A DNA stretch of 56,467 nt from Candidatus Nomurabacteria bacterium (lineage in GTDB: Bacteria > Patescibacteriota > Patescibacteriia > Magasanikbacterales > UBA922). The position numbers and the translations under genes are program-made. This document shows positions 5,101 through 26,232 of this stretch, one piece after another. The notes under the pieces are model-generated. The model saw only the letters and a list, made by a program, of their open reading frames with translations, was not told where the DNA came from and searched no databases. Position 1 is the stretch's first letter. Each line of letters begins with the position of its first letter. The stretch lies in contig JACKFN010000006.1 of assembly GCA_020632445.1 (NCBI GenBank), positions 1-56,467 of the forward strand, given 5' to 3'.

Positions 5101-8100
5101 CCCCTCTGTCGTTTCTAAGTACAACGGCATCTTTTGAGATGTTGTACCAACTCCAAATTTGGAGCAAACTCGTGGTCCCTTTTGTCCCAGGACGACACAC
5201 AACTGCGCGAATATCGCCAGAACCATAGTCTGCATCTTCATCTTCAGAGCAGTCATCATCACCTGAAAGAGGCCTACCCGTATTCTCATCAAAATAGTTG
5301 TCTAAGAAATACTTCAAAAATGGCTTTTCACGATCACGTGCCCCATCAAATCGAAGTGGATAATTTGAGAACGTTAATTCAGAAATTTCTGCTATGTCTG
5401 TATTGTCAGCGTCAGGAATAACAATATCACCATTATTACCTCCTTCATACATTGAACCTCCCGAAGAGTACCGCGTGTACATGTTGCTGGCATCGTATGC
5501 GCCACTTTCCATGGACGTGCTATCGATACAATACACCTCACCACCGGTCGCCGCGCCGGTTGCATCTATGGCATCAATACTTGGATTGTATCCCGCTTCT
5601 ACATTTGAATTAAAGGTATCATTAAGTGCTGCAGAGATTTGCAGTGGCATCCAAGTGAGACATGGGTATTCCTTTCGTGTCTCGAGTTGTATTGGTCTAC
5701 TAAAATCTCTTTCCAGACAGTAACCTTCTACACCAATTCTGACTTCTTTTTTCGATAGCTTGTTACAAATCCCCGGTATAGCAGTAGTTTCTGCGGCTTC
5801 GCCTGGACGAGCAGATTCTGTGTACACATAGGTACAATCTGCGTCAACATTACATGCCTGACCAGCCAAACCATTTCCCGTACACTTCCCTGCAGGAAAA
5901 TTCTTGGTGAGTGGCCAATAATCAGAAGTAATGTCTTCCCCATAATTTACCTTAGTATATCCGCATGAACAATCACCAAACTGGCAAACATTTACCTTTT
6001 CAAAGCCTTGTACGTTCTGTATGTGATCTCTTCTAAACGCGAGATTGCCCTGGTTTTCTGCAATGCTACCACTAAATTGCTCCGCAACATAGTTAGGAAA
6101 CGGACTGTCCTGTTCCGGAAAACTCTTACAGCTACCACCTTCGAGGTATGGAAGGAGATTTGATTCAATTTCTTTCATCCTTTCTACTTGCTGATTGGCA
6201 TTTAAATCGACAAAATCCTCTTCATCGATACGAATACTTGCAGGGAACTGACCGGCAACCGGGTACAGACAACTTCCCTTGTAACAACGGCCACCGTTGT
6301 CTGGTCCACATGCCGTCCAGTTGAGTTCACTTTCGTTCCCTTGCTTACAAGCCCTATCAGAGAACCCTTCATTTCCTTGGTCATCTGGGTCACCGGCAAA
6401 AAACCGATCGTCAACTTTGTGACCTATATAGGTAGTATCATAACCCTCTACGGTAATGAAATATTCAAGATTTGGTATTTGTCTCCTGTTATATAAACTA
6501 TATCCTGTGTACTCAAAACCACTCCATGAAACATTTCTGGTAACATAGCTGTCGTAGTTAAGTGGCTCAAGACCATCGTCAATGCTCTGTGGAGTTACCC
6601 AGCTGACACATTCAGTTCCGTCTTCATTTCGTGCATTACACACTCCATATTCATAACACAGCGGCTCATCACGGCCAGAGATTTTAATTTTACTTCGACA
6701 TTCCAGCCACTCACTACACTGACGATCACGGTTCACCTTGATGATTCTGTTAGCGTCAAGTGTTCGCAAATCATCATTGCTAGGCTCGGTAACGACGTCG
6801 ACCAAACCATAGTTCCCTTCTTGAAAACTTTTCTGGTAGCTTGCTGCTGAGTTGTATACCCTATTAGGATCTTCGGTATAGTTAAAGAGAACACATCCTT
6901 CAGTCTGGCTTACCTGTCCATCACATTGTCCTTCTTTGTCAATAACTTTGTCATTGTAAATAAAGTAATATGGTTCTCCATTTGGATGCTCTGCAGAGGT
7001 GTCTTGTGGATCGATAAATTCACCGCACATGTGCTGTTCAAGTGGACATGAACCGACAAAACCGTCGTATCGGGGTGATTCATTAGAAAAAATTCCAAGC
7101 GCTTCTCCAACAGGAGTGTCCCGCCTCACAAAAAGTGGATCTCGGTAACAGGCTACTGGATCAGCAGTGTTACAGGTTCGAGCGCGCTCTCCATCTGGAG
7201 CCTGTCCACAATCAGCATCGGCCTTACACAACACATCACTGTCATGAGAACAGGTGCCCACTCCCTGGATGTACCAACCGGGAGTTCCACCTTCTGGCTG
7301 CTTGTACTCACAAATCTTGTTTCCAATAACTGCCGGGTCTTTGAAATATATATCAGCGTCCAAACTGAACGTTGAACAACCTAGCTGATCGGCACGACAG
7401 AGCATCTGAGAATAATTTTCAGGTCGATTCATGACATACACATCCTCAAACTGGTAAGCTGACGCCTGGTCATCACGAGGAAGAACCTGTGCCTGCTGCC
7501 CAACCTTAAGACATCCGACCTCATTTGACTGACAAGCAAAGTCCTGGCGAGCTGTCATATATAGAGGACTATCAGCCGGTGTATCTGCCGGAACGTAAAT
7601 ACTGGCAACATCCAAGATAAGTCTATTTTCTGCTGGCAAACCATCTCCAATTCTCCGCAGATCATCTGCATCAGCACCATCAGGCACAACCACTTGCTCG
7701 CCATTTATTTCTACTATTTCCAGTGTTTGATCAATGATAACATTGTTTGGTATATGACAAGTTGTCTGATCTGGAGCGACTTCACATTCAAAACTTTGAC
7801 CATCGTACAGCACCTTACATTTGTTTGAAAGTTCTCTTTCGCGAGATGACATCTCACAAAGCGTGTTGTATACGTGTGCCAAGTCATCCCCTGTCTCAAA
7901 GTCATTGGCTTCCTGTGAATATGAGTTGTAAGTGTCATACATTGGAATACAACCAACAGCATTTTCGCGGCACAGTTTATCAAACCCACTTGTAAACACG
8001 ATCCCCGTATCACCTTCGACATTGGTAAATTGATATTGAGAACAACCAAGTCCCTCTCCAGGAAGACCATCAGTTGGATTTGCGTCACAAGAAAGTGGAA

Positions 8101-11100
8101 CACTCGCGCGAACATTTTGTCCTTGATACTCTACAATGGTTTCCCAACTTCCCTTGATTCGGTATACCTTCTGAGTTGATGGCGAAAGCGAAAGTTTATC
8201 AATAAAGTATGGTTGATTTTGGTCGTCGTTGCTGACAAATACAAGGTTAAGTTCTTGAGAAGCATCTCCACCAAAGAGTACCGGACCCAAAACAACTTCT
8301 CTCCAATTATCTCCAACGGACACTTCTTCTACTTCTTGCTCTGCAATATTATAGGTAAACCGTCCCATTTCCTGACCACCTTGCTCAAAATAAATATCAA
8401 CCGCTTGCGCAACACCACGTGTCCAGAAACGAAGCTCATACCCGGTAGTATTGTCTGATTTGAGCATACCTCCATCAATATGATACTGCGCCCGCACAGC
8501 GCTGATCTGGAGTGAATGTTCATTTGGACTAAGTCCCTCTGCTGCAATCTGTAAATCATTATCATTTTGCGCTGCAAAACCACCCATAGCTTCTTGCAAT
8601 GACTCTTCATTTCCGAAATCATCGGCCTCAAAATCATGTGAGAAAATCGGCGCTGCGACATTGTTTCCACCATTTCCAACATACTCTCTACACATCGCAG
8701 CATCAGGGTTACAACTTTCGGTTCCCTGACCACCTTCAATAGCCTCGTAAATACACACTCCATTTTCATATTTTCCGCCCCCCTGACATCTTTGACATAC
8801 CGGCTCGTCAATTGGAAGATCAAGGTTTTGATTTTCGAGTTGAATTTGGCTTGGAGCTTCCCAAAGACCTCCCCATTGCTGACAGACGTCCTGATCACCT
8901 GCACCAGAGACATTTACATCAATATAAAGCTCTGCGTTGGTCTTTCGAAATGGATTACACTGCGCTGATATTTCTACCGTCTTGGTAACCAAACGATAAT
9001 ATTCCTGGTTATCATCATCAAAGAACCGCAAACACTGCGTTGACCCTTGGTTGTCAGGATTAATATTGTTGATACGATTGTTATACGTCTCTTCATTACA
9101 AAGTTCAAGATATCCAGCGATAACTGCAGGGTCAAAACTATCATAAGCAGGAGATCCTACTGGGAACACCTCATCAAGCTGCGCTTGAACAAGACCATCA
9201 ATAGCACCACGCTGTGCCATGCGAGCTAAATAATCATGTACCTGATCATCGATCTGCAAAAGCCTATGAGTTCGAAGTCGCTGTCCATCGTCTACAGAAG
9301 CTTCCCACGTATAGAATGTTTTTTCATTTTCACGATTGGCGTCTGGCTGCTCACAAAAACGAATCTTCTTGAAATATGCTTCACGCTCACCGGCACCAGC
9401 GGAGAGATCGGTAAATTCTTCACATCCAACGTCTTGCGCTCGACACTCGCCGGCATTTTGACTGTATGGATTGATGTACATTGGGAATTTTTCTGACTCA
9501 AATTGTACCCCCACTTGTCTGTACGCACTGTAGCCAAGACACTCCTGGTTACAAGAACTTCCTCCGACAATTCCCGGCACGAGTGGGTTGGCAGCAACAT
9601 CTCCGTCCACGGTAAGCGGAGTAAATGCCTGACATCCCACCTCCTGCTCAACACAAACCTGTGAAAACTCTCCACACGCAGGATTATTTGGAAGGTCATT
9701 AATTACTTGCGCGAGCGTAGTTGGCCAATCAATTTCTGGAGTAGACCGATCAATATCGTAACAACCCAAATAGTCTGGGGCCTTTTTGAGGAACAGACGT
9801 GTCTGGTTGCTTGCATCTGGATTAGTATAAAAAGCACTACAACCTTCTGCTTCTTGGTTTGCACAGTAGTTTGAAGAGACTTCACTGTTGAGGTAGAGGC
9901 TTCCGTTTCTTCCAAGAAGTTTTAAGTCAACATTAGATGCCGTTTGGTAACTATCAATCCACTGACCATTCTCATCTTGCTCAAGCGCATAGGCAAGACA
10001 TCCACTTGAATTTGCATCACACTGAGCGTAGTCAACGGTTCTTGCCAAGTATGGTGTTATTTGACCGGTAACCTGATTGGTATAGGCCTTACAAGTCGCA
10101 TTTTGCCACTCACAACTATCAGCGCCTGTTCTCCAAATATTTTCTTCTTTGAGACAATATCCGTACGCCTGTGGAGTAACACACTTTCCACTTTCATTTT
10201 CATAAATACAGGTAGAAATGTCTGCGCATTCTGGTTTACGAAGTGCCAAATCCGGCGCCAAAAGCTCAGGACCATACACTCCCATTTCACACTTATGGAG
10301 CGGAGCACGAAGTACCCAATTTGGATTGAGTATTCGACACCATCTAAATTCTGGATCACCAAGCCTCGAAGTATCCAAAAGTTTTTCTCCGGTATCTCCA
10401 TCAATATCATCAATACCATCTCCATTATCATCAACATATGGACAATCATCAAATCCCTCGATAACTTCTTTGAGCGTTGGTGGCTGATCTGGGTCAGAAC
10501 GCAATGCGGCTATCTCAAATCCAAGAGGCAATATTCTTTGTCTACGAAGTTTTTGGAGGTTTGAGTAACAATACGCACCATTGTAGCAGTCCTTATCGTT
10601 ATGCTCTGCTTCATTTACCGGAGAAATTAATTTCCAACTACCATGGAGATACTCGGTTCCATCACCACTACCATTGAGATTCATCGCCTGAGCAATCGTC
10701 ATTGGCTCAGAATTGTTGGCAATATCAAGAGCCTGCGCAAAATCATCATCGATTACACAGTTATTAAGACCCGGATTATCTGGACATGTTCGCATATCCT
10801 GCAAAATATCCTGTGATCCTACCGGAAGTGGATTGACGACCTTCAAGAACGAAAATTCTTTTTTGGCACGCTCACGTGGGTCTATGGCACTGGTATCATT
10901 TTCAAATGAAAGCCCCTGAGCTCCCCTACCTGGATCTGGATAAAGACCTTTGTTGAAGATTTTATCAAGCATCTGATTTGCCAAGGTGTTCAAAAAGACA
11001 GAAGCCGCCATGGGGAAAATCTGCCATGCCTCGGCAGCATACAAACCAGTTATTTGACTGGTAGTGACTTCTCCTTCGTGTTTTGAGGTGTTGACCTTCG

Positions 11101-20484: not shown

Positions 20485-21582
20485 TTAGGGTGTAGACTTA
20501 AGATACTTCAAATAGCTTTCTATAAATGGCATGAGATCTCCATCGAGTACGGGATCCGGCTCCTTGGTTTCATGACGAGTGCGAACATCTTTGATCATTT
20601 TGTAAGGATGAAGCACGTACGAACGTATTTGGTTTCCCCACTCTGCTGATTTGTGCTCTCCCTTGAGTTTCTGCTGTTTTTCAAGTTCTTCTTGTTCTTT
20701 GAGCAACATCAGCCTGCTGCGCAATACTTTCATGGCCGTTTCTTTATTTTGCAGCTGTGAACGTTCATTTTGACACTGCACGGTGATGCCTGTAGGAATA
20801 TGTACAATGCGCACAGCTGAATACGTGGTGTTGACGCTTTGCCCACCCTTTCCTCCTGACATAAACGTATCGACACGCAAATCCTTATCTTCAATTTTTA
20901 TATCCGTATCAGACTCAATTTCTGGTATAACTTCTATCCCGGCAAACGATGTATGCCGCATACTTTCTGCATCAAATGGTGAAATTCGCACCAGACGATG
21001 TGTCCCATGTTCCGACTTGAGGTAACCATACGCATAACGGCCAGAAATGCGCATGGTGGCAGACTTGATGCCTGCCTCACCGCCAAGTGACTCATCCAAA
21101 ACCTCCACTTTCCACCCCTGCTTTTCAGCAAAACGCACAATCATACGCATAAGCATTTGCGCCCAATCCTGCGCTTCGGTTCCACCGCTTCCTGCATGGA
21201 AGGAGACAAGTGCGTTGCATACATCGTACTTTCCATCCATGAGCGCCCAAAACTCCATCTTTTGGTATGTTTTTTCGCATTGTCCCAGCCCTTCTTCCAG
21301 TTCTCGTGTCAGCTCATCCCCCTGCTCCATCTGACCAAGTTCAATCATGTCTGCTACATTTTGTTGCAGGTCCTCAAAATCCTTCACCTCTGTTTCCAAA
21401 TCGGCAAGCTCTTTGCTTACTTTTGCGGCTGTTTGTGGGTTGTCCCAAAAACCAGGCGATGTGGCCTTCTTCTTGAGAGAGGCTATATCTTCCTTTTTTT
21501 GACTGATTCTAAGAATTTCGCTCAGTTGAACCAATTTTGTGTTCAACTCATCGAGTTGTCTCAGTAGTGCGCTGCTTTCCAT
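20485..21582 (-). CDS. prfB: peptide chain release factor 2 (single uninterrupted frame)
   Basis: SPF tripeptide (RISPFD) and GGQ (GGKGGQSVN). Colinear with E. coli RF2. No internal in-frame stop or +1 frameshift site. Confidence 0.95.
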   Translation of the reverse strand: MESSALLRQLDELNTKLVQLSEILRISQKKEDIASLKKKATSPGFWDNPQTAAKVSKELADLETEVKDFEDLQQNVADMIELGQMEQGDELTRELEEGLGQCEKTYQKMEFWALMDGKYDVCNALVSFHAGSGGTEAQDWAQMLMRMIVRFAEKQGWKVEVLDESLGGEAGIKSATMRISGRYAYGYLKSEHGTHRLVRISPFDAESMRHTSFAGIEVIPEIESDTDIKIEDKDLRVDTFMSGGKGGQSVNTTYSAVRIVHIPTGITVQCQNERSQLQNKETAMKVLRSRLMLLKEQEELEKQQKLKGEHKSAEWGNQIRSYVLHPYKMIKDVRTRHETKEPDPVLDGDLMPFIESYLKYLKSTP

Positions 21583-21669: not shown

Positions 21670-21698
21670 TTGACCTCTTTTTTATTTCTGTGTAAAAT
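21670..21698 (+). promoter_or_regulatory. promoter of candidate small RNA
   Basis: TTGACC (21670-21675), 17 nt, TAAAAT (21693-21698). Confidence 0.55.
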
Positions 21699-21704
21699 AC
21701 TGTC

Positions 21705-21842
21705 GACCGAGGGAAAGAGGTCGGGCCAACAAACCGGGACCTGTACCCGTGACCAAATGCCAGCTCACCGCGAGTGAGACGCTAGCGGCCACGCTCTTCA
21801 GAACCCACCTGCCTACCGGTGACCTCTCCCTCCCTCGGTCCC
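21705..21842 (+). ncRNA. GC-rich structured small RNA of unknown class (6S-like rod/bubble architecture; RNase P CR-I/CR-V-like motifs)
   Basis: A GC-rich patch of about 140 nt in AT-rich intergenic DNA, bounded by a promoter and a terminator. The ends pair (GACCGAGGG 21705-21713 with CCCTCGGTC 21832-21840), extendable to about 16 bp. The apical hairpin is ctcac-cgcga-gtgag. No ORF is present. The strand is inferred from the promoter. Confidence 0.55.
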
Positions 21843-21844
21843 AT

Positions 21845-21876
21845 AAAAAAACGCCTTATTCCTAAGGCGTTTTTTG
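21845..21876. terminator. bidirectional intrinsic terminator (small RNA on +, exosortase gene on -)
   Basis: aaaaaaa-acgcctta-ttcc-taaggcgt-ttttt: an 8-bp stem that overlaps the last codons of the 21862 gene. Confidence 0.75.
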
Positions 21877-22803
21877 TTTGGCATTTCTGGAATCAAGCAT
21901 TCGTTTCCATACAAACGAAACATACGCTATGAAAAACAGTATAAGGAGTATCGCACCAATATTATTATGAAACAAATTTACCGCGAATTCAGGATCATAG
22001 TACGCACCGACCAAGAGGATCAAAAGTACTCTTATGCTATTAACCACGAAAACGAGGAGTAAACCCACAATGAAACTCACAACAACCCTCCAAGTGATAA
22101 ACCGATACCCTTTTTGTGATCCCATGAGTAAAAGTGTAGTAAAAAGCACAGTAAAAGCCAAAAGTGAGTGTATGCCCGCGCAGGGTGGACCAATATACGC
22201 GCTAAAGTTCTGTACTTGGACATTGAACGTCTCAAATCTCATCGTATGCTCAATATGAAAAAGACTAAACATGAGTTTTAAACCATACATGGTAACGAGC
22301 GAGGAGTACTCCCAAAAGTAATCAATGAGAATTGGTGCTAAAACAAACGGAATCAAAATCAACAACAAAATGCTAAGCTCTGTCTTAAACTGTACAAAAA
22401 ATTTTCTCCCAAATATCCCCAGAAGTACAAAAATACTTCCGATAAGTAAGACAATATATTCGGCAAATATAAGATCGACGTCATTTTCTAGAAATCCAAT
22501 CTTTTTTATAGGGAGAAAAAAGAACAATGCCCCAAAAAGTAAAAAGATTATGTTGTATGTTGTCTTTTCAGTTTTGCAATGTTGCTGAATTTTTTGAAAA
22601 AAGAAGAGAAAAAAAGCGGTCAGAAGAACAAAAGGTAAGTAGGTAACAAACCCATCAGAAATTTGAAGCTTGTACCCATAATACCTCTGCGTATACCAAA
22701 AATGCACAAAAGACAATACAAATGGCACAATCACAGCAAAAACACAGCGAGAGAGGACTCGCCGTGTTAATTTGCTTCTCAAGTCAATGGCAAGACGTTT
22801 CAT
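21862..22803 (-). CDS. exosortase/archaeosortase-family transpeptidase (polytopic membrane protein)
   Basis: Multi-TM protein. It has the three family signatures in order: Cys motif IGPPCAGIHSL, Asn/Arg motif VNSIRVL, and His motif LFHNNIG. Confidence 0.7.
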   Translation of the reverse strand: MKRLAIDLRSKLTRRVLSRCVFAVIVPFVLSFVHFWYTQRYYGYKLQISDGFVTYLPFVLLTAFFLFFFQKIQQHCKTEKTTYNIIFLLFGALFFFLPIKKIGFLENDVDLIFAEYIVLLIGSIFVLLGIFGRKFFVQFKTELSILLLILIPFVLAPILIDYFWEYSSLVTMYGLKLMFSLFHIEHTMRFETFNVQVQNFSAYIGPPCAGIHSLLAFTVLFTTLLLMGSQKGYRFITWRVVVSFIVGLLLVFVVNSIRVLLILLVGAYYDPEFAVNLFHNNIGAILLILFFIAYVSFVWKRMLDSRNAKQKTP

Positions 22804-22811
22804 GTTTGCTG

Positions 22812-23477
22812 TTACCCAGAACTGCCAAATGCTGTTCCATCCATTCCACTATCCCTATTTTGCTTCAAAAATACTAACATATATCCTACAAGAATTGCCA
22901 TCACCATGACGTACACAATATCTTGAAACTCCGGTACCCCACTACTCGCTGTTTTCAAAGAAATTTGGTCGATATCGTGTGAGCCCGTCATGGTATTACA
23001 TCCCATATCACACATAACAACACGAACATAATAGTGGGCCGATGCATCAGTATTTACCTGAGTGGTCGCCCAATCACCCGGAGCCGTAAAACTCAATGTC
23101 ACTATTCCAGTTGCATTAAAAGCCCCAGAGTCGTTAGTTACGGAAAGCGACGACCAAGATGATCCATCCCAATATTCAAAATCCGTAGAAGAAATCGACC
23201 AAGAAGAATCGTGTGTCTCTGCAGAAATATACATGTAGATCTTATCAAACTTTGCGGCTCCACCAAAATATATCTCCCAACCTCCACCACTTGGCCATGA
23301 CACATCAGCTGCCGTTGCGCTATTGGCATCCGTGGTATCATCAACCCAATCAAGTATATCGTATGTCCAATACGAACTAAGATCTGCATCTGCACCACTT
23401 ATCGGAGTGGCAAAGACATTTATCGGTCCCAAAAGCAGAATAAGCGAAAAAATGGCTGCAAAAATTTTTCTACACAT
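22812..23477 (-). CDS. secreted protein with PEF-CTERM-type sorting signal (putative exosortase substrate)
   Basis: Signal peptide MCRKIFAAIFSLILLLGPINVFA. The C-terminus is GVPEF + TM (IVYVMVMAILVGYMLVFL) + KQNR. Confidence 0.7.
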   Translation of the reverse strand: MCRKIFAAIFSLILLLGPINVFATPISGADADLSSYWTYDILDWVDDTTDANSATAADVSWPSGGGWEIYFGGAAKFDKIYMYISAETHDSSWSISSTDFEYWDGSSWSSLSVTNDSGAFNATGIVTLSFTAPGDWATTQVNTDASAHYYVRVVMCDMGCNTMTGSHDIDQISLKTASSGVPEFQDIVYVMVMAILVGYMLVFLKQNRDSGMDGTAFGSSG

Positions 23478-26075: not shown

Positions 26076-26197
26076 AAAAAAAGCCTTGAGAGTACGATAA
26101 GCCCAAAATGCCGTCTACTATGAGATACTGTGATGCCTGTCAGTAACACAATATCGAGTAGCGAGCATTTCGAGCCAATGGTGCCCTCAAGGCTGCA
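26076..26197 (-). ncRNA. candidate ~120-nt rod-shaped small RNA or terminator-type leader
   Basis: A consensus promoter lies just upstream. The ends pair as GCCUUGAG/CUCAAGGC (26193-26186 with 26090-26083), followed directly by U7 (26082-26076). Several internal complementary blocks exist. No ORF is present. Confidence 0.5.
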
Positions 26198-26203
26198 AGC
26201 TGC

Positions 26204-26232
26204 ATCTTACTCCGCCGCCACAATCTTGTCAA
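26204..26232 (-). promoter_or_regulatory. promoter of the 26.1-kb candidate RNA
   Basis: Minus strand reads TTGACA (26232-26227), 17 nt, TAAGAT (26209-26204). Confidence 0.6.

Follow-up and report, generated by a model that had tools for sequence, protein, structure and literature searches.

The window, by which we mean the whole 56,467-nt stretch of DNA that was analysed, contains a gap flanked by two minus-strand genes. On one side lies a release factor gene (20485–21582), the product of which carries Pfam PCRF and RF-1 domains and for which the name prfB (RF2) was taken from the source names of its closest relatives; on the other lies an exosortase-family gene (21862–22803; Pfam Exosortase_EpsH), with its stop codon at 21862. 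The closest prfB relatives of the window are metagenome-assembled genomes (MAGs) of Candidatus Magasanikbacteria, and the stretch itself is present in activated-sludge and wastewater metagenomes. Between the two genes, on the plus strand, lie a promoter, a GC-rich structured sequence and a terminator hairpin, and it is this unit that is the subject of the present analysis.

The flanking genes have some features of their own. The prfB gene is preceded by a promoter (TTGATA-17-TATAGT, 21619–21591, minus strand) that ends only 8 nt from the ATG (21582), so that the prfB mRNA is expected to be leaderless or nearly so; a TATAG(T/C) box at equal distance before prfB is also present in the related loci L081, L086 and L102. 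The exosortase gene is accompanied by an upstream gene encoding 221 aa in the window (region 21862–23477) and 209 aa in L099. An exosortase gene between groEL and prfB is found in only part of the Magasanikbacteria (L081, L086, L098 and L099 among the loci compared), whereas elsewhere (L001, L003, L009 and L105) groEL abuts prfB.

The transcription unit and the predicted fold of its RNA

The preliminary description of this locus had proposed a promoter of the form TTGACC-17-TAAAAT followed by a GC-rich stretch free of open reading frames, and both elements were borne out. The promoter is of the sigma-70 type (21670–21698, plus strand), with a -35 box TTGACC at 21670–21675, a 17-nt spacer and a -10 box TAAAAT at 21693–21698, and it matches the consensus at 10 of 12 positions. 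The RNA begins after a spacing of about 6 nt, its first paired base (21705) being 7 nt downstream of the promoter. In the orthologous units described below a distance of 5–7 nt likewise separates the closing stem from the promoter (TTGACA-17-TAAAAT in L081, TTGACG-17-TACTAT in L086 and TTGACA/TATTAT in L102). No open reading frame longer than 38 codons occurs in 21690–21860, and the GC content of the RNA is 64 % as compared with about 31–45 % in the flanks.

At the other end of the unit, a hairpin at 21846–21875 (AAAAAAACGCCUUA-UUCC-UAAGGCGUUUUUU in the predicted fold) is preceded by an A-run and followed on the plus strand by a U-run, and it overlaps the exosortase stop codon. Because of these flanking runs and this overlap, we read the fold as a putative bidirectional intrinsic terminator, acting on both strands and common to the RNA gene (plus strand) and the convergent exosortase gene (minus strand). 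The 8-bp terminator stem described earlier is present as the core of this hairpin (ACGCCUUA/UAAGGCGU), but its length was underestimated, as A–U pairs extend the hairpin to 13 bp. A scan with a consensus terminator model flagged nothing at 21846–21875. A terminator is found at the equivalent place in all three orthologues, with different stem sequences.

Folding of 21700–21876 (plus strand) gave -71.1 kcal/mol (z = -5.8), a value that none of 200 shuffled sequences equalled, and the 138-nt core by itself gave -55.4 kcal/mol (z = -3.9). The reverse strand folds better (-89.7 kcal/mol). The promoter, the strand of the Rfam matches in the orthologues and the G–U pairs of the structural alignment (columns 2/186, 49/131 and 58/121, where the opposite strand would have A–C mismatches) all point to the plus strand as the RNA strand. 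Judged by these predicted signals, the gap is shown to hold a separate plus-strand unit with a near-consensus promoter and a terminator of its own.

The core of the RNA (21705–21842, plus strand; 138 nt), as delimited by the folds and by the alignment to model R3 (see below), consists of a closing stem, a central bubble and a terminal stem. The 5' strand of the closing stem (21705–21722) comprises P1 (GACCGAGGGA, 21705–21714), a bulged A and P1b (AGAGGUC, 21716–21722), and its 3' strand (21821–21840) comprises P1b (GACCUCU, 21821–21827), a CCC loop and P1 (UCCCUCGGUC, 21831–21840). The rod of about 16 bp that had been described thus stands as a rod of 17 bp, 10 bp in P1 and 7 bp in P1b, although with the second helix being 7 bp long the internal loop is 1x3 (A/CCC) and not 2x4 as originally drawn. 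The 5' strand of the central bubble (13 nt, GGGCCAACAAACC, 21723–21735) is unpaired or weakly paired in the folds, and the 3' strand (14 nt, ACCUGCCUACCGGU, 21807–21820) may form a small hairpin through either GCC/GGU or CACC/GGUG. The terminal stem (71 nt, 21736–21806) is irregular; it is closed by GGG (21736–21738) paired with CCC (21804–21806) and continues through the helices CUG/CAG, CGUG.CC/GG.CACG and GC/GC to an apical hairpin, CUCAC-CGCGA-GUGAG (21764–21778), flanked by GC-CAG and AC-GC, which the fold placed exactly where it had first been noticed. The motif CCCACCU (21804–21810) straddles the border between terminal stem and bubble, its CCC forming the final three stem pairs and its ACCU opening the 3' bubble strand. 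With the terminator included, the primary transcript is predicted to be about 172 nt long.

Metagenome contigs that aligned to the window and to L086 were essentially clonal and held no informative variation. One aquatic-metagenome strain carries a CGCG insertion after 21768, which merely enlarges the apical loop, and a C>T change at 21677 in the promoter spacer; both changes are neutral with respect to structure.

Orthologues at the same locus and their relationship to 6S RNA

Relatives were compared by their prfB identity to the window in a large protein collection, the closest being L081 (77 %), L086 (66 %) and L098/L102 (63 %), with all others at or below 62 %. We label the window RNA W, that of the sister L081 (also represented by L085) A, that of L086 (the sequence of which is also carried by L089) B, and that of L098/L102 C. 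The gene order groEL–exosortase–gap–prfB is common to the window and these three closest relatives, and in all three the gap contains a unit with a promoter, a closing stem, a structured body and a terminator, antisense to both neighbouring genes. The closing stems are related in sequence, being GACCGAGGGA/UCCCUCGGUC in W, CAGCCGAGGGAG/CUCCCUCGGCUG in A, GACCGGGAG/CUCCCGGUU in B and AACCGGGAG/CUCCCGGUU in C, and the cores measure 138, 157, 124 and 116 nt, respectively.

Beyond these relatives the unit was not encountered. It was not at this slot in the more distant Magasanikbacteria L099, L001, L003 and L105, and no RNA was found in the exosortase/prfB relatives L096, L097, L099, L100, L101, L105 and L107; where other relatives bear an exosortase gene, it either stands beside a different gene or, in L099, lies 46 nt from prfB, and the RNA is absent. 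In Magasanikbacteria at about 60 % prfB identity groEL directly precedes prfB, and a survey of GC islands and open reading frames upstream of prfB disclosed no comparable RNA. The groEL–prfB gap of L002 (1900–2480; 580 nt, 55–62 % GC) is filled by unrelated small open reading frames, including one of 89 codons on the minus strand, and contained neither an RNA like that of the window nor any Rfam match. A blastn search with the window RNA against 80 prfB loci gave no match, and a metagenome scan with an exosortase profile returned only the L086 organism again and unrelated contexts. As regards the exosortase–prfB slot, the unit thus occurs only in a small clade of four exosortase-bearing genomes.

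Searches of Rfam, as recommended in the preliminary description for 6S, RNase P, SRP and the full collection, gave a different outcome for different members of this clade. For the window, cmscan against Rfam 15 at gathering thresholds returned nothing in the whole 56 kb, and at E≤10 the RNA itself (401-nt and 147-nt slices) had no 6S, RNase P or SRP match; the small SRP RNA model (RF00169), which covers the domain IV hairpin, was set aside on this basis. Sister A (L081/L085) had no 6S match either. However, C (L098) matched the 6S model RF00013 with 40.9 bits (E 2.1e-5 when 16.8 kb was searched, and 2.3e-7 locally), and B, via L089, matched it with 37.9 bits (E 1e-4, and 1.5e-6 locally), in both cases below the gathering score of 46.4 bits. 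Judged by E-value thresholds, 6S was by far the best Rfam match for B and C. The matches lie on the strand defined by the promoters and span the bubble and terminal stem, with near-perfect agreement over the consensus segments GuGuGcAaGC-hairpin-GAAgCcuaA and GGG...CCCACCUggaA, the latter at the border of terminal stem and bubble. That the scores fall below threshold is mainly because B and C have a closing stem of only 9 bp, which leaves the corresponding part of the 187-position model unmatched.

The only sequence block conserved in all four RNAs, GG(G)...CC(C)ACCU, lies within this same RF00013 consensus. The junction reads CCCACCU in the window, L081 and L086 and ACCACCU in L098, as compared with '...gggcaCCCACCUggaA' in the Rfam consensus. 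The window RNA thus bears the marks of the 6S consensus at three places, in GGG (21736–21738), in CCCACCU (21804–21810) and in the clamp GC-CAG-CUCAC...GUGAG-AC-GC, its apex corresponding to the GC-AAG-hairpin-AA-GC apex of the consensus. The 6S layout proposed at the outset is therefore supported by the sub-threshold RF00013 matches of two relatives at the same slot, by a common architecture and by GGG...CCCACCU. In a separate observation, groundwater-metagenome contigs of other organisms were found to contain stretches of 36–41 nt that are 85–89 % identical to the L086 6S apex (9840–9880) but have unrelated flanks; as far as these short segments allow, the contigs probably represent 6S genes of other community members, and the shared apex fits a widely conserved 6S motif.

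Linking W and A to B and C by primary sequence failed, since nhmmer comparisons among the four RNAs matched only B and C with each other, with no match of W or A to B or C and none of W to A. What the four have in common is a layout: P1, a 5' bubble strand of 6–15 nt, a terminal stem with GG(G)/CC(C) closure (89 nt in A, 71 nt in the other three), a GC/GC clamp, an apical hairpin and a 3' bubble strand of 14–20 nt that begins with ACCU in every case. The inner helix P1b is restricted to W and A, the closing stem of B and C being 9 bp. The large two-sided bubble is retained in all four while its sequence changes freely.

MAFFT by itself misaligned the closing stem, and the structural alignment was therefore made by hand, with N as a gap placeholder. 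In this alignment (n=4) 92.9 % of 140 cells are paired over 42 pairs, and 18 of the 42 pairs are changed on both sides, counts that lean towards structure because the alignment was fitted to it. Across 500 column shuffles the values of the real alignment were not attained for any of the five measures employed, and sliding the 3' partners by 1–3 columns reduced pairing to 35–44 %. Compensatory changes in the closing stem are found at four pairs (columns 2/186, 3/185, 19/167 and 20/166), and in the terminal stem (helices 3–7) 14 of 23 pairs have changes on both sides. RNAalifold run on the hand alignment recovered P1, the inner helices of the terminal stem and the apical hairpin but not the GGG/CCC closure or P1b.

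Covariance models provided a further link. A model built from B and C only (R1) scored W at 8.7 bits and missed A, and was too specific. A model from all four RNAs (R2) served solely to place A, B and C in an alignment having true gaps, and a third model (R3) was then built from A, B and C alone. When the 56-kb window was searched with R3, filters off, the top and only significant match was 21704–21843 (plus strand), at full length, with 25.3 bits and a rough E-value of 0.0029, the alignment beneath R3 having been made with R2, which had seen W; the next-best match scored 10.3 bits (E 4.2). Over 92 other loci (514 kb) R3 returned only the known members, and there was no second copy in the 56-kb window. 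Because the location was fixed beforehand by synteny, we regard this result as adequate, though not overwhelming, support for homology of W to the 6S genes of B and C, and grade the model-based evidence as moderate.

A second orphan RNA is predicted in the window at 26076–26232 (minus strand), with a TTGACA-17-TAAGAT promoter and a near-perfect rod (z = -7.0). Its orthologue in L086, at about 6405–6545 (plus strand) between a Wzy-like gene and groES, shares the promoter type, and the cores in the window and L086 are almost identical (GGCUCGAAAU.CUCGCUAC..GAUAUUGUGUUACUGACAGGCAUCAC...GUAGACGG.AUUUUGGGC). It is conserved far better than the 6S-like gene 4 kb away. The possibility that it is a paralogue of the 6S-like RNA was considered and rejected, as it matched neither R1 nor R3.

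Interpretation of the RNA and a proposed mechanism

We consider it probable that the unit in the window is ssrS, the gene for a 6S RNA of Candidatus Magasanikbacteria (CPR/Patescibacteria) that is compact and has diverged strongly. Such a compact 6S RNA would therefore be a further member, itself unrecognised by Rfam, of a known RNA class. The window core is shorter than the usual ~200 nt, mainly through short helical arms, and by analogy a 6S RNA of 138 nt is plausible, since truncated 6S-1 constructs still work in vitro (PMC8876501).

The alternative that survives best, although we think it improbable, is that the RNA is a lineage-specific structured sRNA and not a working 6S RNA, either having the rod shape only or being a 6S descendant that has acquired another partner (a protein or a base-pairing target). 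This would accord with the failure to detect any RF00013 similarity in W and its sister A and with the occurrence of the unit at this slot in just four close taxa. It sits less well with the RF00013 matches of two positional orthologues (E 1e-4 to 2e-7), with the retention in W of the CCCACCU junction and the GC-xAG-hairpin-Ax-GC apex, and with the persistence of a large two-sided bubble in all four RNAs despite free sequence change.

Much less probable is a cis-acting element serving the neighbouring genes, whether as an antisense or insulating structure at the exosortase terminator or as an upstream regulatory region of prfB. The element does have its terminator in common with the exosortase gene, is separated from the divergent prfB promoter by about 50 bp and travels with the exosortase–prfB pair in four genomes. 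However, on the minus strand it follows the exosortase terminator and precedes the promoter of prfB, and so would not be transcribed, whereas on the plus strand a strong promoter of its own is present in each of the four genomes. Moreover, in L099 exosortase and prfB lie 46 nt apart without the unit, and the compensatory changes indicate selection on the RNA fold.

We give scarcely any credence to a miniature mobile element, i.e. a MITE-like inverted-repeat DNA hairpin of a type that has been reported from CPR genomes: inverted repeats of 10 bp at its ends and a GC content that departs from the surroundings might suggest one, but the sequence is single copy in the 56-kb window and absent from 92 other loci, its positional orthologues in four species diverge in step with the flanking genes, and a promoter and a terminator mark its limits, with no visible target duplication. 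Least probable of all, to the point of being negligible, is a drastically reduced RNase P-like RNA, which was prompted by the resemblance by eye of GAGGGAAAGAGGUCGGGC and CAGAACCCACCU to CR-I and CR-V and by the ability of AGGU(C)GGG to pair with CCCACCU in a P4-like helix. RF00010 and RF00011 gave no match at E≤10, the CR-V-like block CAGAACCCACCU is accounted for as the conserved 6S junction CCCACCU of the Rfam consensus, and what resembles CR-I is the closing stem's 5' strand. The putative P4 pairing is not conserved either, because its 5' partner AGGU-GGG is missing in B and C, and in A no more than a shifted 5-bp GGUGG/CCACC pairing is possible. The likeness of these blocks to RNase P sequences is fortuitous.

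If, as we favour, the RNA is a 6S RNA, its action can be sketched from what is known of the class. Transcription would start at the first base of the 17-bp closing stem, and the helix-flanked bubble would, by analogy, mimic an open promoter and fill the active-site cleft and DNA channel of the housekeeping sigma–RNA polymerase holoenzyme. A decoy of this kind would be expected to dampen sigma-70-type transcription under nucleotide scarcity. Once nucleotides were available again, the polymerase would copy the 5' bubble strand as a template, beginning, according to our prediction, opposite C21730 and giving a product RNA 5'-GUUGGCCCGACCUC. This short product would unzip the inner closing stem, the RNA would refold and the polymerase would be freed.

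In known 6S RNAs an A beside the start site is conserved and the product carries GG at positions 4/5 or 5/6 (PMC8414754), and our product start sites are predictions made from these regularities. Both regularities fit the predicted start at C21730 in W (product GUUGGCCCGACCUC) and the predicted product of C (GUGGGCU...). In A the predicted product (GUAGGGU...) has GG at 4/5, but the base beside the start is C and not A, and B has no site that fits. Simulated refolding with the template strand blocked, as it would be when bound by product, yielded no rearrangement common to the RNAs.

A more far-reaching joint reading, which we put forward tentatively and regard as rather unlikely in its entirety, is that this clade possesses the shortest natural 6S RNAs, that release occurs by complete opening and that the window lineage has been rewritten outside CCCACCU. 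If this were true, cores would have contracted to 116–138 nt, with a closing stem of down to 9 bp in the L086 and L098 orthologues, and the product RNA would unzip the entire closing stem or run off the 5' end, so that release would differ from the hairpin or collapse-helix rearrangements of Escherichia coli and Bacillus subtilis. The window lineage, in which nearly every base outside CCCACCU would have changed, would then amount to a natural experiment showing how little sequence a polymerase decoy needs when the genome is reduced.

Comparison with known systems

The probable assignment to 6S RNA would place an orphan structured RNA with a known global regulator in the CPR/Patescibacteria, where standard annotation misses 6S; in the literature searched we found no paper treating 6S RNA in these bacteria, beyond a passing co-mention. 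It also does away with the idea of a tiny RNase P-like RNA. From a practical standpoint, these genes are missed when RF00013 is applied at its gathering score, and synteny together with a clade-specific model recovers them, much as weak 6S genes were located earlier by family-level synteny (PMC8414754). For 6S specialists the interest is modest and lies in the small size of these RNAs and their invisibility to Rfam.

RNase P RNA (RF00010/RF00011) has nothing in common with the window RNA other than two short strings resembling CR-I and CR-V; unlike RNase P RNA, the window RNA has no conserved P4 and no architecture of specificity and catalytic domains, and it is one third the size. A closer comparison can be made with Ms1 of the Actinobacteria, an RNA of about 300 nt that binds the core enzyme, not the holoenzyme, and lacks the 6S consensus motifs (PMC9130861). 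Ms1 resembles the window RNA in being 6S-shaped and in having been found through synteny and not through sequence, and it does bind RNA polymerase, but the orthologues of the window RNA, in contrast to Ms1, do match the 6S model.

The closest likeness is to 6S/SsrS RNA itself (RF00013; 6S of E. coli, 6S-1 of B. subtilis and 6S of Aquifex aeolicus). Both have a gene that stands alone behind a strong promoter of the housekeeping type, and in both the 5' and 3' ends pair as a closing stem, next to a large bubble open on both strands and an irregular terminal stem. They also share the GGG/CCC closure with ACCU after it and the apex GC-AAG-hairpin-AA-GC seen in the Rfam consensus; the possible small hairpins in the 3' bubble strand of the window RNA recall 6S-1 in particular. 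The differences are ones of size and of processing. The window core is 138 nt (116–157 nt among the orthologues) as compared with about 180–200 nt, the closing stem is only 17 bp in W and only 9 bp in B and C, and the window copy lies entirely below Rfam detection. In addition, the closing stem seems to form the very start of the window transcript, which would make 5' processing unnecessary, and its intrinsic terminator may stay attached to the RNA. With regard to size, B. subtilis 6S-1 cut down to the bubble and two short arms still binds the polymerase, templates product RNA and is released in vitro, with an affinity about 10-fold lower (PMC8876501). The window RNA shares with these constructs a bubble between two short arms, but whereas they were engineered, its short form would be natural, and the RNAs of this clade would thus provide naturally miniaturised 6S variants for comparison with engineered truncations that are functional in vitro.
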